Shown one piece after another: positions 14,001-58,844 of a stretch of DNA of 64,000 nt (the stretch's first letter is position 1; each line of letters opens with the position of its first letter). The DNA is from Escherichia coli (GTDB lineage: Bacteria; Pseudomonadota; Gammaproteobacteria; Enterobacterales; Enterobacteriaceae). Location of the stretch: assembly GCF_002854065.1 (NCBI RefSeq), contig NZ_CP024151.1; one strand, given 5' to 3'. The notes below the pieces were generated by a model. That model ran no database searches. It had not been told where the DNA came from and saw only the letters and a program-made list of their open reading frames with translations. Both the position numbers and the translations under genes were made by a program.

Positions 14001-16299
14001 CCGTGAACGGTGAATCAGCCACAGGCAGGGAGGCCGGTTCAGCCCGTCCCGGCACAACAACCGTCATCGCGTCCTCGCTGACGGATGCCACCTGCAGGAG
14101 GTCACCGCCGGAGACGCGGAGTCCGGGAATTTTCCCGGTCACCCTCAGACGCTCGCCGTCTGCCACCGGCATTTTTTCCGGCCGGAACAGCGACCAGCTG
14201 CTGTCCAGGGAGGAAATACGCACCACCTGCGTTTCACCCTGCGCATCCCGCAGGGTCAGGCTGTGACTCTGCGCCGTCACCCGGTCGATAACATAGCGGT
14301 CATGACTGCGTGTCTCCGGGTTCCACTGCTCCATCACCATCCCCGGACGGTACATATCCCGCAGATAACGGCTCCGGCTGTCCAGCCAGACCGGTGACAG
14401 TGCCGTCATGGTTACCTCCGGGTGTCCGAGCACGCCCTGTGTTTTCAGCTCACTGCGAATGGCCTGTGTCAGTATGGCCTGTTCCCGTACCCCGCTGACC
14501 TGTGCCACGCTCTCTTCTCCGGCTTTCACGCTGGCCGCAAAATCTCCTGCCAGCCGGGCATAGCGGACATTACGGTCCGGTTCACTGATGATGGTGGCCG
14601 GCCGCTGTTCTCCCCCCTGCCAGCGATATGTGTTCACCCCGGCATCTTTCATGGCCATCAGTGCACTGCCTGTACCGGTTCGCTGCCCGCTGTCGGTTAT
14701 CAGGACCTGTACGTTATGACGTGCAGCACCGTCCAGCAGGGTTAACGTCTCTTTCAGGGAGAGTTTTTCGCCCTGGTCAACGATAACAGTATTGCCCGGC
14801 GTGAAGGCCATGCCCTCCTGCAGCTGACGACGTCCGGTTATCAGCTCACCGGACAGCCGTTCATCCTGCTTCAGGTTCATCTGCGAGCGACGGTCAGCGG
14901 CGATAATCTGCACCTCCCGCCCCTGCTCCCGGGCCATCATGACCAGCTCCGCCACCCGCTCACGCTGCCCGGCTGCACCGCCCTGCCCGGACACAATAGC
15001 CAGCGACGGGCGATCCTGTGCCAGAACACTGACCGCATCGCTGTAACCGGCCGTCCGGGGGACACTTTTCTCCGGATGTACGGTCACCCGGTTCTGTTTC
15101 ATGATGTCACGACTGAGTGCCCGGACTGACAGCTCATCGAGCACATGAATCCCGGACGTGAACAGCCCCTTCTCACGATCGAGGGGGATAAGCTGCTCAC
15201 GGCTGATGGCCTCATCGATACCGGCGCGTGCCCGTTCAATCACACCATTTTCCGGCGGCAGTATGCCGACCGTTCTGGCCAGCACGTCCGTGTACGTAAA
15301 CTGCACTTTGCGTTCACTTAATCCGGCAATCGCCTGTGTCACCGCCTGCTGCACATCCGGCCCGTCCGGTGAAGCAGGCCCGGGCGCCTGCGTGCGGGTC
15401 TCCGCCCGTTGATCCGCCGCGTCACGATACGCCCGGATGTCGAACCCGGTTTCCCTCAGCGTCTGCATCCATTCAGCCATTCTGACTTCAGGATCGACGT
15501 GCTGTTTGGATTTTCGCGTATCCAGTGCCGCCACATCCCGGGATTTCAGCGAGGCATCTTCCCCGACGGCCTCCCGGATAGTCTGTGAGCGTCCGGAAAA
15601 GGCCTCCACCGGTACGCCCGGCATCTCCCACATACCGTGCTTACCCACCACTTCGGTTTCATAGCCCAGCGCCTCAACCTGCTCTTTCAGTTTTTCCCGG
15701 TAGAGCCTGCCAAAGGCAATCTGATTAGCGTACACATTCTCAATGAACCCCGTTTTCCCCACTTTGTCACTGCTCAGTGTCTTCCACTCACCGTTATGCT
15801 GCGTAACATTAGCCACCACCGCATGCGTGTGTAACTGTGGTTCCTGATCGCGACTGGTGTCGTGGTTAAACAGTGCCATCACCAGATTACCGGTCAGTAC
15901 CGTTTCTGACTGTCCGTCCGTCATCACCCGTGTGGAGGCCAGCGCCTCCACCTGACGAACAGCAAAGTCCACGGCCTGGTTATGTGCATCAATCAGGCGC
16001 TTATCGCCACCTAACATGGCCATCATGGAGACACTTTTGGGGGCGGAGAAGGTCAGGTCGTAGCCGGGACGATGCTTATTACTGCCATCCTGCATGCGGC
16101 TTAGATCCGCTCCGTCCGGCAGCCTTCCCTCCAGAAGACGGGTAAAAACATCCTTATCGACACTGCCCTGCAGTCCCAGCTGTTCAGCCCCCCTGCCGGC
16201 CCAGCGTTCTCCCATGCTGCCCAGTACATAGTAATTATCCTTGTCGGTATAATAGTTACCGGCACTTCCGGCCGATCTGACCTGCGCGATACTCATCAT
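11029..16299 (-). CDS. traI: TraI relaxase/helicase (MOBF)
   Basis: 1756 aa; N-terminal relaxase region ([24 protein letters not shown]...) and Walker A GYAGVGKT in the helicase domain; size and position classic for F-like TraI. Confidence 0.95.
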   Translation of the reverse strand: MMSIAQVRSAGSAGNYYTDKDNYYVLGSMGERWAGRGAEQLGLQGSVDKDVFTRLLEGRLPDGADLSRMQDGSNKHRPGYDLTFSAPKSVSMMAMLGGDKRLIDAHNQAVDFAVRQVEALASTRVMTDGQSETVLTGNLVMALFNHDTSRDQEPQLHTHAVVANVTQHNGEWKTLSSDKVGKTGFIENVYANQIAFGRLYREKLKEQVEALGYETEVVGKHGMWEMPGVPVEAFSGRSQTIREAVGEDASLKSRDVAALDTRKSKQHVDPEVRMAEWMQTLRETGFDIRAYRDAADQRAETRTQAPGPASPDGPDVQQAVTQAIAGLSERKVQFTYTDVLARTVGILPPENGVIERARAGIDEAISREQLIPLDREKGLFTSGIHVLDELSVRALSRDIMKQNRVTVHPEKSVPRTAGYSDAVSVLAQDRPSLAIVSGQGGAAGQRERVAELVMMAREQGREVQIIAADRRSQMNLKQDERLSGELITGRRQLQEGMAFTPGNTVIVDQGEKLSLKETLTLLDGAARHNVQVLITDSGQRTGTGSALMAMKDAGVNTYRWQGGEQRPATIISEPDRNVRYARLAGDFAASVKAGEESVAQVSGVREQAILTQAIRSELKTQGVLGHPEVTMTALSPVWLDSRSRYLRDMYRPGMVMEQWNPETRSHDRYVIDRVTAQSHSLTLRDAQGETQVVRISSLDSSWSLFRPEKMPVADGERLRVTGKIPGLRVSGGDLLQVASVSEDAMTVVVPGRAEPASLPVADSPFTALKLESGWVETPGHSVSDSAKVFASVTQMAMDNATLNGLARSGRDVRLYSSLDETRTAEKLARHPSFTVVSEQIKARAGETLLETAISLQKAGLHTPAQQAIHLALPVLESKNLAFSMVDLLTEAKSFAAEGTSFTELGGEIDAQIKRGDLLYVDVAKDYGTGLLVSRASYEAEKSILRHILEGKEAVTPLMERVPGELMEKLTSGQRAATRMILETSDRFTVVQGYAGVGKTTQFRAVMSAVNMLPESERPRVVGLGPTHRAVGEMRSAGVDAQTLASFLHDTQLQQRSGETPDFSNTLFLLDESSMVGNTDMARAYALIAAGGGRAVASGDTDQLQAIAPGQPFRLQQTRSAADVAIMKEIVRQTPELREAVYNLINRDVERALSGLESVKPSQVPRLEGAWAPEHSVMEFSHSQEAKLAEAQQKAMLKGEAFPDVPMTLYEAIVRDYTGRTPEAREQTLIVTHLNEDRRVLNSMIHDAREKAGELGKEQVMVPVLNTANIRDGELRRLSTWETHRDALALVDNVYHRIAGISRDDGLITLQDAEGNTRLISPREAVAEGVTLYTPDTIRVGTGDRMRFTKSDRERGYVANSVWTVTAVSGDSVTLSDGQQTRVIRPGQERAEQHIDLAYAITAHGAQGASETFAIALEGTEGSRKQMAGFESAYVALSRMKQHVQVYTDNRQGWTDAINNAVQKGTAHDVLEPKSDREVMNAERLFSTARELRDVAAGRAVLRQAGLAGGDNPARFIAPGRKYPQPYVALPAFDRNGKSAGIWLNPLTTDDGNGLRGFSGEGRVKGSGDAQFVALQGSRNGESLLADNMQDGVRIARDNPDSGVVVRIAGEGRPWNPGTITGGRVWGDIPDNSVQPGAGNGEPVTAEVLAQRQAEEAIRRETERRADEIVRKMAENKPDLPDGKTEQAVREIAGQERDRSAISEREAALPESVLRESQRVREAVRDVARENLLQERLQQMERDMVRALQKEKTLGGD

Positions 16300-19457: not shown

Positions 19458-19967
19458 TTAACTAACAGACTCTTTTTTGAACAGTCCTATTACTGAGGCT
19501 ATAGCTGAGAGATTATAACGATTTATATCTATGGTATACACCAAGAAAAATAATATGAATGTAATCATTAGTGCAAAAACATATAAGATAGAATGCATAA
19601 ACGAAACCATAGAAAAAACAATCAAAAACAACAAAATATATGTCTTACTCTTAGAATACATAAAATTTATTATTTTTGAATCCTTTCTGAAACTATCAGG
19701 AATCGCAAGGTATAACATCATTCCATTTGTAATAGCCACAAAAAGCAGGAACCCCATCATTCCACTAGCACATATATCAAAGCCAACATCCCTGACATCA
19801 CTTTTAACCGATACTAAACGCAGAAAAGTTGGCCATAATAAAACCCATAAAAACACATAAGTTCCCGGCTTTATGACTTGTAATAATGATGGGATATTAA
19901 CACCCTCTACAGAGAGTACCTCCTTTAGTTTTTGCATCTCCATTCTTATATCATAGTGAGTGATCAT
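19458..19967 (-). CDS. traS: TraS entry-exclusion inner-membrane protein
   Basis: 169 aa, very hydrophobic, AT-rich gene located between traG and traT (conserved position of the variable traS). Confidence 0.75.
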
Positions 19968-22789
19968 AATGGCCCCTTCAATCGTTCTTTCTTATCATCC
20001 ACCATCTGTTTTAACGCATCTTCAGACGGTGTTGGCATTAATTTCTGTCGTTTATTTTCTTCATTATATCTGTTGTTTTGTTGAATTTCTTCCTGTTTGT
20101 GATTATTTTTTAACTCTGAATATTGTCTGTCTACAATATTTTCTTCGCCATGAATACTATTCTGAGTATCTCCGATATTCCCTTTATATTCTGTGACCAT
20201 ATTATCAACCTGATGTTTTACATCATTACGGATATTACTGTCCTGCGTTCTTTGATCAATAATGGCCTGATGCCCCTGATGGTCAGCAATAATATCCTGG
20301 CTGCCACCACCCGAAGGTACGCTCTCCATTCCTTTACCAATATCCCCACGGGATTCACGCCAGGCATTATCAACACCAGGCTGCACCTGTTCCTGAACAA
20401 AAGACCATGCCATCGCCCGACGGCGTTCTGCAATCTCCGGTGAACTGGTGTTTGTCAGAATAGCTTCGGCATCCTGCGGTGCGTGTTTCATCACATACTG
20501 TGCAAACTGTTGCGACAAATCTTCGCTCATCTGCCCACTCATGCTTTCAGTACGGGATGCCATTTCAGCATATTCATGGCTGCGGGTCATATTCGTCGTG
20601 TACTGGTCGTAACTCTGTTTCGCTGAGTTCAGGGCTGCAGACAACTGGTCCACGCGGGAATCGGCATTATTGTCAGTATGGCTGCCGGATTCACTGACTT
20701 TGCGACTGGTAAAGTAATCGCTGGCCTCTTTAAAGTCCTTACTGGCTTTAGCATCGATATCATGGCGAGCATCATGGGTAGCCCTGCTGCCACTACTTGC
20801 TGAATGTGAGTCATCATCCGTTGCATCCAGGCTCCCCTTAAATCCACCTCTGATGCCTACCCCACCACCAACACCAAGAATTTTAGGTTTAACCCCCCAT
20901 TCAGCATGAGCATCAGCATACATTCCACCAGATAGCCTGGTACTTGTTGATGCCAGTTCCTGAGTCGCCTGCTCATTACTGATATTATGCGCCTTCGCAT
21001 AGCTTTCCACTGCACTGCGCATACGGCTGGCCATCATGGAGTCCTGAGCACTCATCGTGCTGTCAGCACCACCGGTGACAGAATCACTGCTCCCCCGGTT
21101 AGAACCAAACTGACTGAGCGTGTTCCAGGCACTGGCAATACTGCTGCTGAACCCATGCAGGGCACTTTCTGCTCTGTTCGATGCTTCCCGGGCCATTTCC
21201 TGTTGTGCCGCCGCAATCTGACGCGTTGCATTGATGCCGACCGGTAACCGGGACATCGCTCCGCTTGCATCCATCACCATATTACCGTCACGGGTCTGTG
21301 TGGCGGTTGCGCCACTGCCGGTCTGGTACATCATCTGACCAAACGACGTGGTGCTGTTGGTGCTCCAGCTGAAGCCGTTAACATTCTCCGTCTGCATGTT
21401 GCCGTAGGAGTAATTACCGTCAACCACACTGCCTGCTGCACTGGCGGTCGGGCTGATAGCAGAGGAAGCGAAATGGCTGTACACACTGGAAAATCCTGCC
21501 CCGAGCCCCCTGACCATCATCCAGGATAATGGCGGGATCATCATGGAAAGATACCCGGCAGTGGAAGCCAGATCGGAGTATTTCAGCTGTATCTGTGAAA
21601 TTTCCGAGAGCACCACCGGTGCACCATTCTGCTTTGCATAAAATGTCATGGCGCTGTTCAGAATGGCGTACAACATTGGCCATGACTGCAACCACATCAG
21701 GGCAAACACATAGCCTTTCAGGACGGACAGCGTCAGTTTGTTGAAGACAGCCGCCAGTACCAGGAGCGGGAAAATACCGATGGCGATCCCCGTCAGGATG
21801 GTCTGCGTCATGGGCAGTGTCCGCATCGCCACATGACCGATGGAGACATGTGCCAGACGTTGCTTCTCCATCGATGATGTGGTGGCCAGATTCACCAGGC
21901 TGGCCGAATCACCATTACGTGCGGCATAACTGGTGATCCCCTCCTTCAGCGCATTGATGGTGACATTCTGGCGGATGATCTGGCTGGCTGATTTACTTGA
22001 GCCATAGAAGTAACTGTAACTGTCGCCAATCAGCGTACTGAACAACAGGTTCGGATCAGGGCGTCCACCAAATAGCTGCTGGGCATAATAATGCCATGTT
22101 TTTCCGCCACTCTGTGTGTCCAGATTCAGCTTGTCTTTCAGCGAAACCGACGCGTCCTTACAGGTCACGAAATTATTATTGCTGTCATAAACGCCCCGCA
22201 GCGGACTGGGGCGGGAAAAAATCAGCGTGTAAGGATCAGCGGAGGCCATCAGTTCCTCCAGCGTGTATTTGTGGTTCAGGTAAATATCCCCCATCACGCA
22301 GTTCTGCACATAATCCTGGAAAAGATTGGCGATTTCCGGATTACGGGACAAAAAGTCGGTGCTTTTTGATACCAGTTCTGCGCCAAACAGCATCCCCGTT
22401 TTGCTGTAGGTGACACTGTCCGGTTGCGTGAAGATCATCTCGTAACTGGCCACCATTGCATGCCCGATACGGGTCGTCAGTGAAAGTGGCATCGCCAGTC
22501 CGACCGGCACATTATCCACCCGGTGAACTTTGACCAGGTCACTGTTATCAATAATCTGCACCGATGTGCGGACATTAACCAGCAGGCTGATAAGCACAAA
22601 CACGGCCACCCAGCCCAGCAAATCCATCACGTTGTGCCGCTGTACCCACATTACGGCCACCGCGAGAACAGACAATGTGAGCGCAATTTTTTCAATGGAA
22701 TCCCACGTCCGGGTCCCCATAAAGGCGGCAATGGCATTCAGGTTATTCCGCAACCACTCACCACCGGCAATCACATAAACTTCATTCAC
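19964..22789 (-). CDS. traG: TraG (mating-pair stabilisation / entry-exclusion partner; VirB6-like N-terminal domain)
   Basis: 941 aa; multi-TM N-terminus and large periplasmic C-terminal domain; position after traH. Confidence 0.92.
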   Translation of the reverse strand: MNEVYVIAGGEWLRNNLNAIAAFMGTRTWDSIEKIALTLSVLAVAVMWVQRHNVMDLLGWVAVFVLISLLVNVRTSVQIIDNSDLVKVHRVDNVPVGLAMPLSLTTRIGHAMVASYEMIFTQPDSVTYSKTGMLFGAELVSKSTDFLSRNPEIANLFQDYVQNCVMGDIYLNHKYTLEELMASADPYTLIFSRPSPLRGVYDSNNNFVTCKDASVSLKDKLNLDTQSGGKTWHYYAQQLFGGRPDPNLLFSTLIGDSYSYFYGSSKSASQIIRQNVTINALKEGITSYAARNGDSASLVNLATTSSMEKQRLAHVSIGHVAMRTLPMTQTILTGIAIGIFPLLVLAAVFNKLTLSVLKGYVFALMWLQSWPMLYAILNSAMTFYAKQNGAPVVLSEISQIQLKYSDLASTAGYLSMMIPPLSWMMVRGLGAGFSSVYSHFASSAISPTASAAGSVVDGNYSYGNMQTENVNGFSWSTNSTTSFGQMMYQTGSGATATQTRDGNMVMDASGAMSRLPVGINATRQIAAAQQEMAREASNRAESALHGFSSSIASAWNTLSQFGSNRGSSDSVTGGADSTMSAQDSMMASRMRSAVESYAKAHNISNEQATQELASTSTRLSGGMYADAHAEWGVKPKILGVGGGVGIRGGFKGSLDATDDDSHSASSGSRATHDARHDIDAKASKDFKEASDYFTSRKVSESGSHTDNNADSRVDQLSAALNSAKQSYDQYTTNMTRSHEYAEMASRTESMSGQMSEDLSQQFAQYVMKHAPQDAEAILTNTSSPEIAERRRAMAWSFVQEQVQPGVDNAWRESRGDIGKGMESVPSGGGSQDIIADHQGHQAIIDQRTQDSNIRNDVKHQVDNMVTEYKGNIGDTQNSIHGEENIVDRQYSELKNNHKQEEIQQNNRYNEENKRQKLMPTPSEDALKQMVDDKKERLKGPL

Positions 22790-39536: not shown

Positions 39537-40223
39537 TTACTTAACGCTATAAAATTCACGAATTATATTTAATAGCAAATCTATTTTCCCTTTATAGATA
39601 CATGACACTCTGAATAAATCAAAGTGTTCAAAAAATTCTTTTATTTTCCGTTTAACTGGTTTAATTCGATCCTCAGATGCTCTGTCTGTAATACCCAATT
39701 CTCTGGCAATTGTTGCATGACCAACACCCAGCATATAAAAAGAGAAAACAAGCAATGTCCCGGGGGAAAGATCATTCCATATCGTTAATTTATCAGAAGT
39801 ATTTGTATTACTTCCACTCTGACTTAACGCAAAAAATGGATAATCAGGAAACGGATTAATTTGCCATAAAACAACAGATTCGTCATTATAAAAAGAAACA
39901 TTCTCCATCCTTATCTGATAGATTTCGCCATGAAAATTAAAACGACGACAAAATGCAGAGCCATGTCCAAGAGCCTGGCATTCCAATTCAAGTGATGAAA
40001 GAAAAATTTCAACCTGCAGACGTATATAACTCTCTCCGGATAAGGGTTTATCTTCTCTGGAAAAGAGTTCAATAAAAGCCCCATTGGCATAAAGGATTTT
40101 CCGGTTTTTGTTACGGACACAAACCGGAACGGGAGAATTTCTGTAGATATTCTGAACGTTAAGGATGTACTTATTTACAGATTGACTGTTAAGTGGCCTT
40201 TCTCTACGATCCAGCGCACACAT
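39537..40223 (-). CDS. traJ: TraJ transfer operon activator
   Basis: 228 aa from [14 protein letters not shown]...; C-terminal HTH; start at 40223 preceded by GGAGG and embedded in the FinP-complementary leader. Confidence 0.85.
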
Positions 40224-40296
40224 AGGAACCTCCGTTAAGGATTCTATGGACAGTCGATGCAGGGAGTTCAGACCTCCCTGCATCGGCGATTTTCAG
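40217..40296 (+). ncRNA. finP: FinP antisense RNA (complementary to traJ 5' UTR/start)
   Basis: Two stem-loops on the plus strand opposite the traJ RBS/start: CATAGGAACCTCCGTTAAGGATTCTATG and GATGCAGGGAGTTCAGACCTCCCTGCATC followed by GGCGATTTT (intrinsic terminator). Ends approximate. Confidence 0.6.
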
Positions 40297-40413
40297 TTTC
40301 AATTTTTAACGTGGCATTAACCACGTAATTAATATACTAATTATCTGACGTATTGTCATCTTTTTGAATCATAAAAATTCTTATATTTGAACCAACTCAA
40401 ACTTCATTTTCAT

Positions 40414-48580: not shown

Positions 48581-48603
48581 GATGTGCCTCCTTCTGTTGA
48601 TGT

Positions 48604-49220
48604 TTTCAGCCCCCATCATCTTTTGAGTTTCGGGAGCCGCGGTTTTGACGTTTTGCGGGGACCTGCCTTTTGTTCCCTCCGGTATTCACCATCACCTTTT
48701 TGAGAACCTTCGCCGCAAGGGGCATCACTGCCACGGACGGAAACGACTGTCCGGGGGCAGACCGCAAAAGTTTTTGCCTGCTTTTGGGCAAAAAGTTTTG
48801 CGGGATGTACATTTCACCCCTGGACTGGCGGAGACGGTTGTGGCTGTCTTTGCCCCCGGCGACAGGGGCTTAAACAGGTGAATGGCACCGGACAGAACAA
48901 CGGGCAGGGACCCGCCGCAACGACGTGAAGCGCGGTTTGCGAAACGGCGTTGCCCCTTACATCCCGGCGGTCTTTTGCCGGGATGCCAGGAGCGCAGGCC
49001 ACGGCGCGACAGAGGCGGCGCGACCGGAACGGTCGCTGCAAGCCAGGGGTTTTCACGCATCGGACCGTAGCGACAGCCCGAAACCGCGCCAGCGGGTTCG
49101 GCGGAGACTGGCAGGTGCGCCAGCAGCTGCCTGTCGGAGTCGGGCCTGACGACCGGATGCCGCCAGGCAGCCGGGAGCCGAAGGTGCGCCCGGCAGACAG
49201 GACAACACTGCAGTAGTCAG
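48604..49220 (+). repeat. Dispersed leading-region repeat, copy 2 (Frpo/ssi-like), upstream of ssb
   Basis: Near-identical to copy 1; immediately 5' (in minus-sense) of ssb, the classical position of the F Frpo element. Confidence 0.6.
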
Positions 49221-51496: not shown

Positions 51497-51727
51497 TCAG
51501 TTAAAAGCGCGTTTCAGTTCGAGTGTGCGGAGCACCTGCCCGAAGGCCGTGTTTTTCATGGCGGGGATGTGTACACCACGCCCCCGGTGAAAACTCCGGG
51601 CAATGTGTCGCCCGAAGGCTTTCAGCACGGGGTCAATTTCCGGCGCGGGGATGTCTTCGCGTCTGAAACGGGGATGACGGCGGGGCTTTACAGCCGCTGC
51701 GGAAGGTGAAACAATACTTACTGTCAT
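51497..51727 (-). CDS. Hypothetical small basic protein, 76 aa
   Basis: First ORF downstream (minus-sense) of repeat copy 3; Arg/Lys-rich. Confidence 0.45.
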   Translation of the reverse strand: MTVSIVSPSAAAVKPRRHPRFRREDIPAPEIDPVLKAFGRHIARSFHRGRGVHIPAMKNTAFGQVLRTLELKRAFN

Positions 51728-51964
51728 AAATGAAACTCCTTATGACAAATTGGTTAACAATGCCGTCAAAATTGGTTGTGCAATTCTTACGGCGTGGATT
51801 AAGCAGGTCCCTGACCTGCTTTTTTCATATCTGCGTCTGACGTTCTACGGTGTTTTCCTCCTTCTGTTCCTGCGTTCTCATTACCTGCCAGCCGGATGAC
51901 TGACAGAACAAATAAATGCATATTGCCGGAGCCTGAAATAAATCCTGATTTTTAAAGAACATCA

Positions 51965-52575
51965 CCCGTTGAGTTTCGGGAGCCGCGGTTTTGACGTTTC
52001 GCGGGAACCTGCTGCTGTATTCCCTGTGGTATGAACTTCACCCGTTTGAGAACCTTCGCCGCAAGGGGCATCACTGCCACGGCCTGACGCACCTGTCCTG
52101 GGCAGAACGCAAAATTTTTTACCGGGTTTTGGGTAAAAAATTTTGTGGGCTGTTCATTTACCCTGGACAGTCAGTGCGGCAGGTTGTGGCTGTATCAGCC
52201 CCCGGCGACAGGGACTCATACGGGTGTGTGGCACCGGCAGGCAATGAGCAGGGACCCGCCGCAACGACGGAGAGCGCGTGCGCGAAACGGCGTTGCCCCT
52301 TACATCCCGGCGGCCTTTTGCCGGGATGCCGGGAGCGCAGGCCACGGCGCGACAAGGGTGGCGCGACCGGAACGGTCGCTGCAAGCCCGGGGTTTTCACG
52401 CATCGGACCGTAGCGACAGCCCGAAACCGCGCCAGCGGGTTCGGCGGAGACTGGCGGGTGCGCCAGCAGCTGCCTGTCGGAGTCGGGCCTGACGACCGGA
52501 TGCCGCCAGGCAGCCGGGAGCCGAAGGTGCGCCCGGCAGACAGAACAACACTGCAGTAGTCAGAATCAGAGCAGC
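51965..52575 (+). repeat. Dispersed leading-region repeat, copy 3 (Frpo/ssi-like), 5' half diverged
   Basis: 3' about 330 bp near-identical to copies 1 and 2 (CCCGCCGCAACGAC...GCAGTAGTCAGAATCAGAGCAG); 5' half recognisably related but diverged. Confidence 0.6.
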
Positions 52576-52764
52576 AGATAAAGGAACAACAACATCAGGA
52601 ACAGTTCCATAACATAAGAAAGAAACACTCCTGAGTCAGACACATCACAGACGGGAAGGGTAACGGGCGACGCGCCAGCGTGGCCCGCTTCCCTTCCGGC
52701 AGGCGTCAGCCTGCCAGGGGTTTTCGCGCGGACTGACAGGCGGCCTCCACCGCCTGCCCCTGTA

Positions 52765-52956
52765 TCACCTGTTTCTGCTACCCTGTAAGATGTAGTGACC
52801 GCCCAGGAAAACCGCCTGCTGATTCGCCACAAAATCGCAGATTTCATCAACAATCTGCGCGGTGGTGAGCGGTTTCTGCCCCATTTCACGACGCCGCGCA
52901 TTAATCACGGCCCTGTAATTACGCAGAATTTCGCGGGTTTCTGTGCTGATATTCAT
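52765..52956 (-). CDS. Hypothetical small protein, 63 aa
   Basis: Start overlaps the stop of the upstream 144-aa gene by 4 nt (translational coupling). Confidence 0.4.
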   Translation of the reverse strand: MNISTETREILRNYRAVINARRREMGQKPLTTAQIVDEICDFVANQQAVFLGGHYILQGSRNR

Positions 52957-53387
52957 GACATCGTCTCCCCGTCCAGCGCCTGTAACACAACGTCCATTGC
53001 TTCGCGTTCCTCCCTGACGAATGCGTCACCGTCGCCCCCGTTCTCACTCCCGACGGCATACAGGCGCTTCATTTCACTGCCTGCCAGCGCCATCACTTTT
53101 TCCAGCATCACCGCCGGGACTGTCACCTGACGGCTGGCGCGCTTTTCTTCCATCAGTTCATGAACAACGCCGTGAACAACGCCGTGAACAACGCTGACAT
53201 CCGCACCATATTCAAAGGCATCGTCCAGCCGCTGCATGACGGTTTCCAGCTCATCGTCTGTCAGACTCCAGTCCTGGGCTATGTGACGCACATCCCCACG
53301 GGTCAGCACCACGGCAAAAACGCATTCACTGTCCGGCACGTCTGTATCCAGCACTTCGCGGATAATTTCTTTAACAGTACAGTACAT
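52953..53387 (-). CDS. Hypothetical acidic protein, 144 aa (paralogue A)
   Basis: Shares ends and central motif (RQVTVPA) with the 55103..55537 product; SD AAGGAG before ATG 53387; contains an in-frame 12-bp x3 tandem repeat. Confidence 0.65.
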   Translation of the reverse strand: MYCTVKEIIREVLDTDVPDSECVFAVVLTRGDVRHIAQDWSLTDDELETVMQRLDDAFEYGADVSVVHGVVHGVVHELMEEKRASRQVTVPAVMLEKVMALAGSEMKRLYAVGSENGGDGDAFVREEREAMDVVLQALDGETMS

Positions 53388-53433
53388 GTTCTCGTCTCCT
53401 TTACAGGGGCGGCATTGCCGCCCCGTCCGTTAA

Positions 53434-53859
53434 TCAGTCCAGAGCCGCGTAAATCGCGTTGCATTCGGGGTGAAATTCGATGTGACGCCACAACTGCGCA
53501 TCGCGCATCCGGTAAAGCTGGGTCAGTCCTGCATCCCCGCTGTCGTGGTACAGCCACAACTGGCGGTTAATCACAAGGGAGGTCAGGATGATGCCTGCGG
53601 CATCAGCACTCACGGTACGGTCAAACCAGTTTGCACCGTTCACCATGTGGAAACGGTCGCCATCCGGCATCATGTAACCGCCACCGTCCGGCAGGCGGAT
53701 GAAGTGCCAGAAGCCTCCCTGATATTCCGGCATCATTTTTTGCGCCAGCGCGTACACATACGCCTCGGCATACAGAAAATCGTTGCCAAACAGATACGGC
53801 AGAAAGGAGAGACGGTCGCACTCTTCAACATTCAGAGTGACAGGTTTCGCATATTGCAT
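53434..53859 (-). CDS. klcA: KlcA/ArdB-family antirestriction protein
   Basis: 141 aa; ...[21 protein letters not shown]...[18 protein letters not shown]...[27 protein letters not shown]...[12 protein letters not shown], the conserved KlcA/ArdB pattern as I remember it. Confidence 0.85.
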
Positions 53860-54275
53860 GATGTTTTCCTCCGTTGTTCACATATTCCGCGACACCGGGC
53901 GGTGCCGTGCCTCCATAAAAGCCGGGCGAACAGGCGGGGATGCAGGGGCGCAAGGGAAGCCGCAGCCTGACGCACACGGCTGACGGGAGTTGCAGGGTGA
54001 GACCGCGAAATCTGAGCGGGTGAACGACCGGAAAATCACGGCAGACGGGAAGGAGGGACCGGGTGACCGCAGCGGCGAAGCGTACCCTTGCATCAACGCC
54101 AGCCCGGCTAAGATGGAGGCACGGCACAGCCCGCACACGACGCTGAGGCCACATAACTGAAAAACCACAAGGCCATGCCCTGCATGGCCGGGTAAAGCGG
54201 AGCCGGCGGCGACTTCCTTTGTGCTCTGTCCGGGGACCGGCAGGAAAAAGGCGGGGATTTACCCCGCCAGTGTCA

Positions 54276-55103
54276 TCATTTCCGGATTTTTGCCAGGGCA
54301 TCCGCCATGCTGCGGATTTCGGTCCGGGCTTCCCGGACCACCTCCCGCAGAACACCACGGTCAAACCAGCGGCGGGGCGGTTCATCCGGTATACGCAGCA
54401 CATCGCAGGCCAGCCCACTGGACAGGATATGCTCAATACACTCACTGACCAGATACATTTCCACCGACGAAAAACGTGCTCCCCGGTTCACGATGGCATC
54501 GAGCACCACGGGCAGGTTTTCGTCATCTTCATCGAGCCAGCAGGGGTGATCGCTTTCCTTCACGACCAGGCGAAAGCGGCGCGTCTGGCGGGTCAGCAAC
54601 GTCTGACCGGTGGTGGTCAGCGCCGCACGGATACGCCGCGCATCTTCTGCCACCTGGTAACAGATGCTTCGTACCGCATCGTGCACCGCATCAAGAACAG
54701 CCTTGATTTCGTCTTCGGTCAGCCATTCTCCGGCATACGGGAAAGACACCTGCGTTCCGTCTGCCGGAAGTACCGGCAGCGACTGCCACTGACTGCCGGA
54801 CAGTACCAGTTCCGCCCCGGTTCCGGTCAGTCTCTGAATGGCGGAGGCCAGGAGCGGCGGCAGTACGCCGCCGTGACGGTTGATAAGTAACGTCGCCAGC
54901 CGGGGCGCATCCAGCCGCACGTAAATGCTGATCCAGCCCGGATAGTTCGGATTTCGCTGGTCAACATCCGTCTCTTCCGGCCAGTCCTGCGCCAGCAGCA
55001 GGTTACGGGCGTGACGACAAATCAGTGCGTTCAGCGTGCTGTTTTCGTTCATGATTAAGCGTTCTCCCTGTATCGCCGCCCGCAGGGCAGGCGGCGATAA
55101 CAT
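54276..55103 (-). CDS. Hypothetical protein, about 258-275 aa (leading region)
   Basis: Track ORF; alternative start at 55052 ([10 protein letters not shown]...). Stop/start abuts the upstream paralogue-B gene. Confidence 0.6.
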
Positions 55104-55537
55104 CAGTTGTTTTCGTGTGTGTTGTTTTTCAGCAGGGTGCGGGCCTGATTAACCACCGCCTGACGGCGGGTAACGCATTCCGGGACGGCGAGGCCGTTAT
55201 CACGGGCGGCCCACTCACGTTTCCACAGTGCCTGTTCAGCGGTCTGAATCAGGGACGCCAGCAGTTCAGCAGGGACGGTCACCTGGCGGTTTTCGCTCAC
55301 GTTGCTGATAATCTCCATCACCGCGGCGGAAGAAATACCGGATTCAGTCCGCTGGTCTTCCGGGATGTCCTCCATGCGCGCCAGGACGGTCCTGATTTCA
55401 TGATCGGTCAGAGAAATTTCCATACCGTCAGCCAGTGCCTGAATCTCTTCCGGGGACCAGATAACCAGCATCAGCGGCGCGTCTCCCGGATACTTTGCTG
55501 CCAGCTCCCGGCATAGCGTTTCGCATGTTCCGTACAT
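55103..55537 (-). CDS. Hypothetical acidic protein, 144 aa (paralogue B)
   Basis: Paralogous to 52953..53387 (same length, MY.T..E..RE N-terminus, ...LTD.E..TV..R..D..., RQVTVPA core); near-identical RBS context (AAGGAGACGAGAA-ATG). Confidence 0.65.
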
Positions 55538-55550
55538 TCTCGTCTCCTTC

Positions 55551-55772
55551 TCAATCTTTGAAGCAGGAATCCAGTTCCAGAATTTCGGTATACGCCTCCA
55601 TAAACAGGCGATTGGCGCGATACAGCGTCTGGCGTGTCAGGCGTTCAACAAGCACATCGGAATCAAAGCGACAGCGATGCTCCATATCGTTCAGCCTAGC
55701 CCGAAGGTCACACATGGTGTTGGCCACCTCCGCCACGTCGGCGCGAAGTTTTTCGTGTCCGGCATAGTTCAT
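55551..55772 (-). CDS. Hypothetical small protein, 73 aa
   Basis: ORF immediately downstream of the methyltransferase gene (adjacent stop/start). Confidence 0.45.
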   Translation of the reverse strand: MNYAGHEKLRADVAEVANTMCDLRARLNDMEHRCRFDSDVLVERLTRQTLYRANRLFMEAYTEILELDSCFKD

Positions 55773-56456
55773 TTACGCAGCCTCCGGTTCAAACCAGTTA
55801 TCATTCGCGGCCCCCTGCTGCATGGCCCGTTGCACGGCGGCCAGTCGTTGCTGTCCGGCACGGTGATACTGTTCAAGCAGCTCGATACCGATATACCGGC
55901 GTCCGGACTGGAGGGCGGCCACGCAGGTTGAGCCGCTGCCTGCAAACGGGTCCAGCACAATCGCGTTCGGATGTGTGAAGCTCTCAATCAGTGGTTGCAG
56001 GCTGGTAACGGGCTTTTCCGTCGGGTGATGGCGGTTGCCCGAATATTTCCAGCCCAGCACGTCGGGTAATGGCTTCGGAGGCAGCGCCGGACGGCCTTTT
56101 GCCAGGATATAGGCGCATTCGTGACGGTACGCGACATACGCAGATTTGGATGTGTAGCTTTTGGTGAACACAAGGTGCCCTACAACGCTGAATCCGGCGC
56201 GTTTCCAGGCTGCCATAAAGCGGTCAATACGGTTCCAGCCATAGAAACTCACCATCAGCGCATCTTTTTTTAGTACGCGGTACATCTCATTACTGGCAGG
56301 TTGCAGCCAGTCATCGTTAACGTCACCGGCAATGGTGCGCCCGGAACGGTCACGAAAACCAACGAGATATGGTGGGTCGGTTAAGATGAAATCAATGGCG
56401 TTATCAGGAATCGTGGCCATAACACGCACGCAGTCACCCAGGATAAAACGGGACAT
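55773..56456 (-). CDS. Orphan DNA methyltransferase, beta class (N6-adenine or N4-cytosine; YhdJ-like)
   Basis: 227 aa; motif IV DPPY near the N-terminus (..DFILTDPPYLVGF..), HPTEKP, and motif I DPFAGSGST near the C-terminus, the circularly permuted beta-class order; no adjacent restriction endonuclease candidate. Confidence 0.85.
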   Translation of the reverse strand: MSRFILGDCVRVMATIPDNAIDFILTDPPYLVGFRDRSGRTIAGDVNDDWLQPASNEMYRVLKKDALMVSFYGWNRIDRFMAAWKRAGFSVVGHLVFTKSYTSKSAYVAYRHECAYILAKGRPALPPKPLPDVLGWKYSGNRHHPTEKPVTSLQPLIESFTHPNAIVLDPFAGSGSTCVAALQSGRRYIGIELLEQYHRAGQQRLAAVQRAMQQGAANDNWFEPEAA

Positions 56457-56841
56457 AACAGCACTCCTCCTCTTACAGAGGGCACCGGGAGGGCGCCCCT
56501 GTGGCGCCCGTTCTCCGCTGCCTGTGGGCTGTTCACCGCGTCCGGTAACGGGTCAGGCCGACCGTGGAATACCGCAGCCGTCGTCTTTCTGACGGCGAGG
56601 ATATGCCGCGAAAGCGGCTTGAAGGGCATTCATCAGAAAAGGGCGACAGGCTGGCGTACACTGTCACCGACGCCAGCCAGGAGCGGTAAAAGCGCCCGTC
56701 CCGTGCCCGGCCGGACACGGGACACTGACCACAGGCAGCGTTCCTGCCGCGCCGCGTCAGCCGGCGCAGTAAAAAGAGGAGCACGGCGACATCCTTTGTC
56801 GGAAAAGAAACGGGCGGTTGCCCGCCCGTCTCCGTCATACT

Positions 56842-57768
56842 TCATCCGCCATAATGCGCCACCTTGTCGACTATCCACGCAGGTCCGGTGACTTCCGGCA
56901 GCTCATCGTCATCTGTCGGGGAAGACCATTCAAGTTCCCCCCACAGCACATCAACGAGCTCTCCACGCTCATACAACTGCCAGCCACAGAAATTGCAGCC
57001 TTGTTCGGCGTACCAGTGCTCCAGCGTGCAGCTGAAACGGCGGCTTAATTCTGCAACAACGTCGCTTTCCGGCTGACACCACGGCGTGTCGAAATCCACC
57101 TGAATGAAGTTTTCTCCCTGACTGCTGATATTCAGGTCATACCCACAAGGCCACTTCACGCCATACCGTTCGGTATACCAGTGATATGCAGAAGGAACAC
57201 CGTTCAGAACACCACCGTTAAAGCCATTCACTTCAACATCCAGGCGGGTCGGCAGAACCGTCAGCAGGTCAAACGGCATGGTTTTTTCCGGCAGCACGTT
57301 GTCACACAGACGGTTCCACCACACCGATACATCCTCGTTACCCCAGATGTCACACCAGTCACCTCTTTTTGCGGTGAAATGCACAGTGATGATTTCCCTG
57401 ACATCATCCGGTAATCCTTCCCAGCGACGCTGTCCAGTACCGCTCTGCAGCCAGAGTTTATGCAGCATCAGGCAGTTTTGCTCATCCAGCAGTACACCGT
57501 CCTGCAGGTATGTCAGCCAGCGGGTGAACGCGATATTCTCCGGCGATACAACGCCACGCCCGGCAGCCGTCAGTCCGGGGCATGGTTCAAACCGCACATC
57601 TTCAGTGGTCTGCAGAAGTCCGGCACTTCCGGCCAGAAACAGCTGAATACCTTCATTTGTGGCGCGGCGATAAAGCGGTGTGACTGCACCGCTGGCCAGT
57701 CGTTTAATCTCAGCAATCTGTGCCGGTTCACCAGAAAAATGCATACGATTTGAGCACCAGTTTGGCAT
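56842..57768 (-). CDS. Conserved leading-region protein (DUF1281-like), unknown function
   Basis: 309 aa from MPNWCSNRMHFSGEPAQIAEIKRL...; SD AGGAGA before ATG 57768; Trp/Cys-rich. Family name from memory. Confidence 0.7.
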   Translation of the reverse strand: MPNWCSNRMHFSGEPAQIAEIKRLASGAVTPLYRRATNEGIQLFLAGSAGLLQTTEDVRFEPCPGLTAAGRGVVSPENIAFTRWLTYLQDGVLLDEQNCLMLHKLWLQSGTGQRRWEGLPDDVREIITVHFTAKRGDWCDIWGNEDVSVWWNRLCDNVLPEKTMPFDLLTVLPTRLDVEVNGFNGGVLNGVPSAYHWYTERYGVKWPCGYDLNISSQGENFIQVDFDTPWCQPESDVVAELSRRFSCTLEHWYAEQGCNFCGWQLYERGELVDVLWGELEWSSPTDDDELPEVTGPAWIVDKVAHYGG

Positions 57769-58122
57769 GGGAATTCTCCTCTCACATGCGGCCTCTATCA
57801 GGCCGTGCCGCACCTGTAACCGGGCGACCGCATACGAATGCAGGTGCGGCCCCGAAGCCGCAGCGCGTGGAGGAGGAACGACGAAACGTGACCGGGTGAG
57901 GAGGCCGGCGACAGCGACACACTTGCATCGGATGCAGCCCGGTTAACGTGCCGGCACGGCCTGGGTAACCAGGTATTTTATTCACAGAACCGTGCGCAAA
58001 ATGCTGTGGATAAGCTGGACACAGCAGTCCACAGCAGGCATACAGCCACACCCTCAGAGAATTGAGCGTTTTTTAGTCACAATAATGACATTTGACTGTG
58101 TGTGGATTCAGTTATTAGAATG

Positions 58123-58138
58123 CTGTATATACATACAG
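58123..58138 (+). promoter_or_regulatory. LexA (SOS) box overlapping the promoter of the dinI/umuDC-like operon
   Basis: CTGTATATACATACAG (CTGT-N8-ACAG) immediately downstream of TTGACT (58092..58097) and TAGAAT (58116..58121) with 18-bp spacing. Confidence 0.8.
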
Positions 58139-58161
58139 CAATAGAAAAGGGAGATGAGAAC

Positions 58162-58410
58162 ATGATCCGCATTGAAATTCTTTTCGACCGCCAGAGCACA
58201 AAAAACCTCAAATCAGGCACACTTCAGGCGCTACAGAATGAAATCGAACAACGTCTGAAACCACACTCCCCGGAAATCTGGCTGCGTATAGACCAGGGCA
58301 GCGCCCCGTCTGTATCTGTCACAGGAGCCCGCAACGACAAGGATAAAGAACGTATCATGTCTCTGCTGGAAGAAATCTGGCAGGACGACAGCTGGCTGCC
58401 TGCAGCATGA
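58162..58410 (+). CDS. DinI-family protein (ImpC-like)
   Basis: 82 aa from MIRIEILFDRQ...; resembles DinI; SD AAGGGAG before ATG 58162; first gene of the SOS-box operon. Confidence 0.75.
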   Translation: MIRIEILFDRQSTKNLKSGTLQALQNEIEQRLKPHSPEIWLRIDQGSAPSVSVTGARNDKDKERIMSLLEEIWQDDSWLPAA

Positions 58411-58844
58411 GTACCGTTTATCACCGTCCGGCTGACCCTTCAGGCGATGACAGTTACGTGCGACCGTTGTTTGCCGATCGTTGCCAGGCCGGTTTTCCTT
58501 CGCCTGCCACTGATTATGCTGAGCAGGAACTGGATCTGAACAGCTATTGCATCAGCAGACCTGCAGCCACCTTCTTTCTGCGCGCCAGCGGTGAATCGAT
58601 GAACCAGGCTGGCGTGCAGAATGGTGATCTGCTGGTAGTGGACAGGGCCGAGAAACCACAACACGGGGACATCGTTATCGCTGAGATCGACGGTGAGTTC
58701 ACCGTCAAACGACTGCTGTTGCGCCCACGCCCGGCACTGGAGCCGGTTTCAGACAGCCCGGAATTTCGCACACTGTATCCGGAAAACATCTGTATTTTTG
58801 GTGTTGTCACTCACGTGATACACAGGACGCGGGAGTTACGCTGA
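58407..58844 (+). CDS. UmuD/ImpA/MucA-family protein (LexA-like S24 peptidase, Pol V accessory subunit)
   Basis: 145 aa; C-terminal peptidase-S24 region with ...RASGESMNQAGVQNGDLLVVDRAEKPQHGDIVIAEIDGEFTVKRL...; overlaps dinI-like stop. Confidence 0.88.
   Translation: MSTVYHRPADPSGDDSYVRPLFADRCQAGFPSPATDYAEQELDLNSYCISRPAATFFLRASGESMNQAGVQNGDLLVVDRAEKPQHGDIVIAEIDGEFTVKRLLLRPRPALEPVSDSPEFRTLYPENICIFGVVTHVIHRTRELR

Follow-up and report, generated by a model that had tools for sequence, protein, structure and literature searches.

We describe here two genes, referred to as A and B, on a 64,000-nucleotide stretch of Escherichia coli DNA (contig NZ_CP024151.1 of assembly GCF_002854065.1; this whole stretch is called the window). 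Their products, both encoded on the minus strand and both 144 residues long, just as an initial reading made from the letters alone (the sequence-only reading) had delimited them, belong to DUF1380, a family of acidic, all-helical proteins of about 140 residues found on plasmids of Enterobacterales, and each gene lies after one of the two restriction-evasion genes of the plasmid. In the window A is preceded by a gene for an antirestriction protein and B by an orphan DNA methylase gene and a small gene of the YubE family (Table 1). The complete gene order, namely DNA methylase, 73-residue protein, DUF1380, 258-residue protein, antirestriction protein, DUF1380 and 63-residue protein, is also that of the classical F plasmid, with which window positions 52609-58051 are collinear at 93.7% DNA identity over 5.4 kb.

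Table 1. Genes and sequence elements of the DUF1380 locus, in window coordinates (aa, amino acid residues; ORF, open reading frame; ssDNA, single-stranded DNA)
Feature	Coordinates	Strand	Assignment and evidence
Paralogue A	52953..53387	-	A-type DUF1380, 144 aa; orthologue of F-plasmid YubJ (also YcjA, YcgC, YfeC)
Paralogue B	55103..55537	-	B-type (canonical) DUF1380, 144 aa; orthologue of F-plasmid YubF (also YcgB, YceB, YfcB)
In-frame 12-bp repeat in A, 2.8 to 3 units	53161..53196	-	Encodes VVHG-VVHG-VVHE
KlcA/ArdB-type antirestriction gene	53434..53859	-	RefSeq 'antirestriction protein'; phrog_10132 anti-restriction, 9e-20
Orphan N6/N4 DNA methylase (DPPY motif), homologue of ssDNA-specific M.EcoGIX	55773..56456	-	RefSeq 'DNA methylase'; PF01555 on equivalents
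YubE-family protein (PF27407), 73 aa, between methylase and B	55551..55772	-	phrog_4830
Uncharacterised protein of 258 aa (probably YubG of F; also YchA, YfdA)	54276..55052	-	phrog_8919, Shine-Dalgarno sequence, RefSeq
Basic ORF of 63 aa (probably YubK of F)	52765..52956	-	Overlaps A stop as ATGA; F-like lineage only
GC-rich stem-loop in klcA-A spacer, no U-tract	53406..53424	-	RNA fold -18.4 kcal/mol
Large imperfect hairpin (238 nt), candidate ssDNA promoter of klcA-A-63aa operon (class 2 of PMC12672017)	53896..54133	-	32-nt arms, 88% complementary
Large hairpin, candidate ssDNA promoter of methylase-YubE-B-258aa operon (class 3 of PMC12672017)	56516..56740	-	Inverted repeat, 30-nt arms
Intrinsic-terminator-like hairpin with T-run, end of methylase operon after 258-aa gene	54250..54268	-	

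In BLASTP searches A and B align with 29% identity over 119 residues (E 2e-11), and this alignment contains the motifs by which they had been likened to each other at the outset (MY.T, LTD.E..TV..R and RQVTVPA). Separate alignments of A-like and B-like relatives were built and compared profile to profile with hhalign, the check that the sequence-only reading had itself proposed for the paralogy. The resulting match is highly significant (probability 99.6%, E 6.4e-25) and covers 134 columns, i.e. nearly the full length of the proteins, and the paralogy therefore holds over their whole length. B matches the Pfam model of DUF1380 (PF07128) with an E-value of 6.2e-53 over model positions 1-137 of 137, whereas A does so more weakly (2.4e-5; residues 1-103, model positions 1-102). 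Both proteins match phrog_9024 (B: 4e-72), and A is 100% identical to the RefSeq entry WP_014106967.1, a 'DUF1380 family protein'. The orthologues in F are 95% (A) and 92% (B) identical to the window proteins; their names, YubJ and YubF, were linked to the family through name strings in the supplementary table of Samuel et al. 2024 (PMC11541004) and through a 'yubJ' annotation that came up under the query for the repeat in A. Judged by these comparisons, A and B are true, ancient paralogues that represent two subfamilies of DUF1380, the first with the C-terminal signature GGGD...REE...AL (A-type) and the second with the signature AEQALW..EW.ARD..VPE..TRR (B-type). The family as such is without known function, and no assignment of the proteins to a characterised non-defence family emerged.

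The ribosome-binding contexts of the two genes are nearly identical, as had been pointed out (AAGGAGACGAGAACATGTAC vs AAGGAGACGAGA-ATGTAC). Distant homologues use other Shine-Dalgarno contexts, so the shared context characterises the F-like lineage. Duplication of the operons as whole segments was also considered: the two large hairpins of the locus share only 28-29-nt patches, and the two genes only patches of about 20-32 nt of DNA. The duplication is therefore ancient, and homology at the level of the operons cannot be shown. In some Klebsiella and Salmonella plasmids no coding sequence is listed for B, but the notion that it is a pseudogene there was discarded, as tblastn shows an intact 144-residue ORF and the PLSDB gene table is incomplete. 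The RefSeq start of B in NZ_CP096835 is an ATT, giving a protein of 172 residues whose gene overlaps that of YubE, and in F a 184-residue form is annotated (window 55537-55621). With the ATG at 55537, which a strong Shine-Dalgarno sequence precedes, the protein begins with the family-wide N-terminus MYGT, and the longer annotations are probably wrong.

Among 1.84 billion representative proteins a profile search recovered only 261 clusters, many of them fragments. Named relatives in the AFDB are mostly from Enterobacterales, those of full length having 135-144 residues, and a tblastn search of B against 50,697 phage records returned no DUF1380 match. In the ranking by Samuel et al. 2024 (PMC11541004) of families with significant enrichment in leading regions and an orientation suited to T-strand transcription, the two subfamilies, both labelled uncharacterised, stand 7th, with 3957 members and a median ORF position of 19 from oriT, and 14th, with 3145 members and a position of 15. 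The UniProt name 'adenine-specific methyltransferase', recorded for DUF1380 in the same table, is probably a spill-over from the neighbouring methylase gene. As far as titles and abstracts tell, none of the papers found on DUF1380 deals with the function of the family; queries with ycgB, ycjA, yfeC, yubJ and yubF brought up nothing functional, and recent papers on leading regions do not mention it. Both families are already catalogued, in RefSeq and by Samuel et al. 2024, and are not a new kind of system; what is added to the catalogue here is the upstream pairing of A-type genes with KlcA and of B-type genes with the methylase and YubE, corrected gene starts, and an allele series of the repeat in A.

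The upstream pairing came from a comparison of synteny on contigs that carry divergent members, about 34% identical to the window proteins (locus numbers are those of the comparison set). A KlcA/ArdB homologue lies upstream of every A-type gene examined (PF03230 in L003 and L004, a KlcA homologue in L007 and L019), and the methylase and YubE genes lie upstream of every B-type gene examined (L003-L006, L008-L010); in L003, L005, L008 and L015 the equivalent gene bears the annotation PF27407:YubE. The sequence-only reading had instead characterised A and B by distinct downstream partners. This did not survive the comparison: the 258-residue gene is absent in L003, L005 and L008, the 63-residue gene is absent after the A-type genes in L003, and in the divergent contigs hairpins, a klcA homologue or ardA come after the DUF1380 genes instead. 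The upstream gene is therefore the informative, conserved partner.

The same reading had each gene translationally coupled to its downstream neighbour. The stop of A does overlap the start of the 63-residue frame, but the coupling of B to a frame of about 275 residues is doubtful. The TGATG overlap of the latter with B is present, but its ATG lacks a Shine-Dalgarno sequence, and it is the ATG at 55052 that is preceded, at a distance of 8 nt, by GGGAGA; PHROG 8919 (phrog_8919) aligns to residues 18-275 only of the longer frame, and RefSeq annotates a protein of 258 residues (777 nt) both here and in F. The start at 55052 is thus better supported, and most likely, to go by these start signals, the partner of B begins 48 nt after the stop of B, i.e. 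51 nt later than in the 275-residue version. Neither downstream protein has a useful match in Pfam or the PDB, and the 63-residue protein also has none in NCBIfam. A toxin-antitoxin pair formed by A and this small basic protein was rejected, as there are no matches to known toxin or antitoxin families in NCBIfam, Pfam or PADLOC; it is further disfavoured by the absence of the 63-residue gene after the A-type genes in L003, which leaves no conserved two-gene cassette. A natural in-frame fusion of a B-type DUF1380 protein with the 258-residue protein (375 residues, P0131; L015-L018) occurs on at least eight contigs from different samples and is joined at an AR.LL microhomology common to both proteins. 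It may be a weak Rosetta-stone hint that the two act jointly, or a sign that the junction is dispensable.

Little space separates the genes upstream of B: the methylase and YubE genes meet at TAAATG, and 13 nt lie between YubE and B. The spacer between klcA and A measures 46 nt and contains, after the stop of klcA and ahead of the A-type Shine-Dalgarno sequence, a stem-loop of the form GGGGCGGC-AAT-GCCGCCCC. An equivalent stem-loop is found in F, L003, L007 and L019 (L002 is also listed), although the proteins are about 35% identical, and it is near-identical in three of the four other loci. This element could be an mRNA stabiliser or an attenuator that sets the ratio of KlcA to DUF1380 expression.

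The genomic setting is that of a conjugative plasmid. E. coli plasmid pPM4-5-103k (IncFIB/FIC) matches the 3.8-kb region at 100% identity, and at 90% identity or more the region is present in over 5000 plasmids in PLSDB, from Escherichia, Klebsiella, Salmonella and Shigella, most of them conjugative MOBF/MPF_F plasmids. FinP and the 5' untranslated region of traJ lie at 40217-40326, about 12.6 kb from A and about 14.8 kb from B; from the position of this marker the locus is therefore in the leading region, and this, together with the gene order of F, bears out the placement that the sequence-only reading had proposed. All genes of the locus are on the minus strand, which is the orientation of ssb and psiB in the identical plasmid, and their neighbourhood is an anti-restriction island with KlcA/ArdB and the orphan methylase.

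Each of the two operons is preceded by a large hairpin, and these fold as ssDNA with z-scores of -4.75 (53896-54133) and -6.6 (56516-56740) against shuffled sequences. In F and in the IncI1 plasmid pESBL hairpin ssDNA promoters drive the induction of the KlcA operon and of the operon of the M.EcoGIX-type methylase in transconjugants; klcA and ardA have class 2 and M.EcoGIX has class 3 promoters, the start sites were mapped by 5' rapid amplification of cDNA ends, and both operons are transcribed within minutes of recipient entry (PMC12672017). The positions of both hairpins in the window agree with the class 2 and class 3 promoters of that study. A scan of 4.3 kb (52600-56900, seven genes) found no sigma-70-like promoter consensus, with 1.3 expected from shuffled sequences, which is consistent with transcription from hairpin ssDNA promoters. 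RefSeq places a 101-residue 'hypothetical protein' with an isoelectric point of 11.5 (window 56533-56838, minus strand) almost wholly on the 56516-56740 hairpin; it is probably not a gene but an ssDNA-promoter element.

Several further elements surround the island. It is bounded, on the opposite strand, by a DinI-like/ImpC gene and a umuD-like gene (window 58102-58844, plus strand); no umuC partner is annotated after umuD in the identical plasmid, and umu-like operons bordering anti-defence islands have been described by Samuel et al. 2024 (PMC11541004). An Frpo-like element is present twice, at 51960-52394 (92.7% identical to F 14175-14610, upstream of F ssb) and at 48602-49052 (97% identical to F 19563-20012). 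The former precedes an extra operon that is not at this position in F and comprises a 76-residue gene, a DUF3560 gene of 453 residues and a class I S-adenosylmethionine-dependent methyltransferase. An Rfam match to AS-pc01 (RF02875, an antisense RNA described for plasmid pHK01; 91 bits) at 51722-51824 on the plus strand adjoins the start of the 76-residue ORF (51497-51727). Two K. pneumoniae plasmids (L012, L014) carry a group II intron with the ltrA reverse transcriptase/maturase just downstream of the 63-residue gene, in the non-coding stretch that matches window 51.7-52.7 kb and contains the Frpo-like element 51960-52394.

Ratios of nonsynonymous to synonymous substitution (dN/dS) were estimated by the Nei-Gojobori method and pooled over ten pairs among the window, F, pO157 and two Klebsiella plasmids. 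They are 0.20 for A and 0.31 for B, as against 0.23 for the 258-residue gene, 0.18 for YubE, 0.13 for the 63-residue gene, 0.09 for the methylase and 0.07 for klcA. A and B are thus less constrained than klcA and the methylase, but their values are well below 1 and denote purifying selection; the description of the two genes as diversifying has to be given up, and both encode functional proteins. Both are indeed acidic, with isoelectric points of 4.39 (A) and 4.68 (B) and net charges of -17 and -9. Across the family net charge ranges from -13 to -17 in the A-type and from -7 to -11 in the B-type, so that only the A-type is markedly acidic.

AlphaFold2 models built with the family alignments are all-helical for both proteins. 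The model of B has a mean predicted local distance difference test score (pLDDT) of 88.0 and a predicted template modelling score (pTM) of 0.63, with helices at residues 5-15, 29-38, 45-56, 70-82, 90-113 and 120-142; that of A has a pLDDT of 78.6 and a pTM of 0.53. The significant matches in a Foldseek search of AFDB50 are DUF1380 proteins, and PDB sequence profiles contain no relative of them. Searches of NCBIfam, PADLOC, Pfam (with every family member) and the PDB profiles gave nothing beyond DUF1380 and phrog_9024 by which a function might be assigned, and detected no enzyme or DNA-binding domain. In the BFVD one marginal match (E 5.7e-3, 88 columns, 22% identity) joins the N-terminal part of B to A0A7L8ZN79, an uncharacterised 92-residue protein of the Erwinia jumbo phage pEa_SNUABM_47, which is the sole hint of this fold outside plasmids.

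An anti-defence role is plausible from the genomic context only. Our leading interpretation, offered tentatively, is that the DUF1380 proteins are further components of anti-restriction or anti-defence that the plasmid deploys alongside KlcA and the methylase. They would be early establishment factors that work by protein binding and not by catalysis, and the two paralogues might be specialised for different targets. A more specific version, which we regard as somewhat doubtful, is that DUF1380 is a new plasmid-specific anti-defence family in which each ancient paralogue neutralises a different host barrier to incoming ssDNA or new double-stranded DNA through a helical-bundle protein interface without counterpart among solved structures. 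The KlcA-linked A-type might act, for instance, on a component of Type I or Type IV restriction, and the methylase-linked B-type on a system that senses methylation or targets plasmids.

The conserved upstream pairing could also be read in another way, with the DUF1380 proteins as accessory or regulatory subunits of their upstream neighbours (the A-type with KlcA/ArdB, the B-type with the methylase and YubE) and not as independent effectors; they might be chaperones, adaptors to ssDNA or the replisome, or brakes on toxic over-methylation. This would fit the constancy of the upstream partner of either subfamily in lineages as divergent as about 34% identity and the close packing of the methylase, YubE and B genes; the loss of M.EcoGIX activity on purification (Fomenkov et al.) suggests a need for partners. 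M.EcoGIX nevertheless methylates ssDNA when expressed alone. KlcA and ArdB confer antirestriction when cloned alone, and klcA of IncP plasmids is not known to have a DUF1380 neighbour. On balance, subunits of this kind are unlikely.

The early expression predicted for the locus would be shared with non-defence genes such as ssb, psiB and yfjB/herB, which ssDNA promoters also serve. The proteins could have an establishment function that is unrelated to host immunity, e.g. in the handling of the incoming strand, in the timing of complementary-strand synthesis or in host physiology, comparable to the ParB-like HerB/YfjB of leading regions, and the lack of similarity to any known anti-defence protein in profile and structure searches would fit this. 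However, DUF1380 shows conserved linkage to the two restriction-evasion genes rather than to ssb, psiB or parB-like genes, its members are acidic, and no nucleic-acid-binding domain was detected in them; we consider such a function quite unlikely.

The sequence-only reading had been reminded of DNA mimics, which in the manner of ArdA and Ocr would titrate DNA-binding defence enzymes. Small size, acidity, early expression, a position within an anti-restriction island and, in the A-type, the high net negative charge all agree with this. However, neither structure prediction with Foldseek nor the profile searches gave ArdA or Ocr among the matches listed, no similarity of sequence or fold to any solved DNA mimic was found, the B-type is only moderately acidic, and the conserved positions are mostly hydrophobic or belong to the R-x-V-T-V-P-A motif, with few conserved acidic columns. 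Mimicry of DNA is accordingly very unlikely. In sum, what that reading observed is largely correct, and what it made of it is plausible in outline and unsupported in its specifics.

The repeat in A, for which variation in copy number had been anticipated, does vary among homologues. Tandem Repeats Finder reports a 12-bp unit in 2.8 copies (53161-53194), the third unit having one mismatch (TGAACAACGCTG), so that the triplicate seen at first sight is in frame as described but imperfect. Natural alleles contain one unit (136 residues; ...DVSVVRELMEEK), two units (140 residues; ...VVHGVVRE or IVHDVVRE, the form found in F) or three (144 residues; VVHGVVHGVVHE or VVHGVVHGVVRE). Allele frequencies were assessed with a 101-nt probe across the repeat, which matched 4796 PLSDB plasmids. 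About 84% of the matches (4048) fall in the band of 80-90% identity, where sampled rows align over 89 nt, corresponding to a 12-nt gap and hence two units. When rows were sampled at even intervals down the ranking, none but the first matched all three units perfectly, which puts the three-unit allele in fewer than about 81 of the 4796 records (<2%). The exact 144-residue A protein is nevertheless encoded on 104 contigs, which speaks against an artefact of assembly. The AlphaFold model of A places the repeat inside the predicted helix 64-85, and each four-residue unit would lengthen this helix by about one turn. The repeat is an ordinary in-frame polymorphism of replication slippage, which is tolerated, and not a switch. 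We give next to no credence to a contingency locus, akin to those of phase or antigenic variation, that tunes or switches the activity of A, since, for all the natural variation from one to three units, a 12-bp unit is a multiple of three and cannot switch the frame, no more than three units are seen with the two-unit form dominant, and two-unit alleles are often imperfect (IVHDVVRE), which disfavours rapid slippage.

The DUF1380 genes are among the commonest uncharacterised genes of the IncF and IncI plasmids by which antibiotic resistance spreads in Enterobacterales, and, to go by F and pESBL, the pair is made in the first minutes after the plasmid enters a new cell. If these proteins do inhibit host defence, or act as partners of KlcA or the ssDNA methylase, this would fill a gap in our picture of how F-like plasmids become established and would offer a target for blocking their transfer. 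The pair is a well-defined object for experiment.

Among known systems, ArdA and Ocr resemble DUF1380 as small, acidic, early-expressed proteins of leading regions, and ArdA is even encoded directly downstream of a B-type DUF1380 gene in some plasmids (L008); the DUF1380 proteins, by contrast, have no sequence or structural similarity to them and a lower charge density, especially in the B-type. KlcA/ArdB (PF03230) is of similar size, is co-transcribed with the A-type DUF1380 gene and is zygotically induced, but the two families are unrelated. KlcA has a solved fold and a demonstrated anti-Type-I activity in vivo, and neither is known for DUF1380. M.EcoGIX is ssDNA-specific and protective and is active without DUF1380; the B-type DUF1380 gene, whose product lacks methyltransferase motifs, is the third gene of the M.EcoGIX-type operon in F, in IncI1-like plasmids and in others. 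The closest counterparts are YubF and YubJ of F, which are the same genes as B and A in the same order (methylase, YubE, YubF and 258-residue gene, followed by KlcA, YubJ and 63-residue gene), F YubJ differing from paralogue A of the window in having two repeat units (140 residues) instead of three (144 residues).

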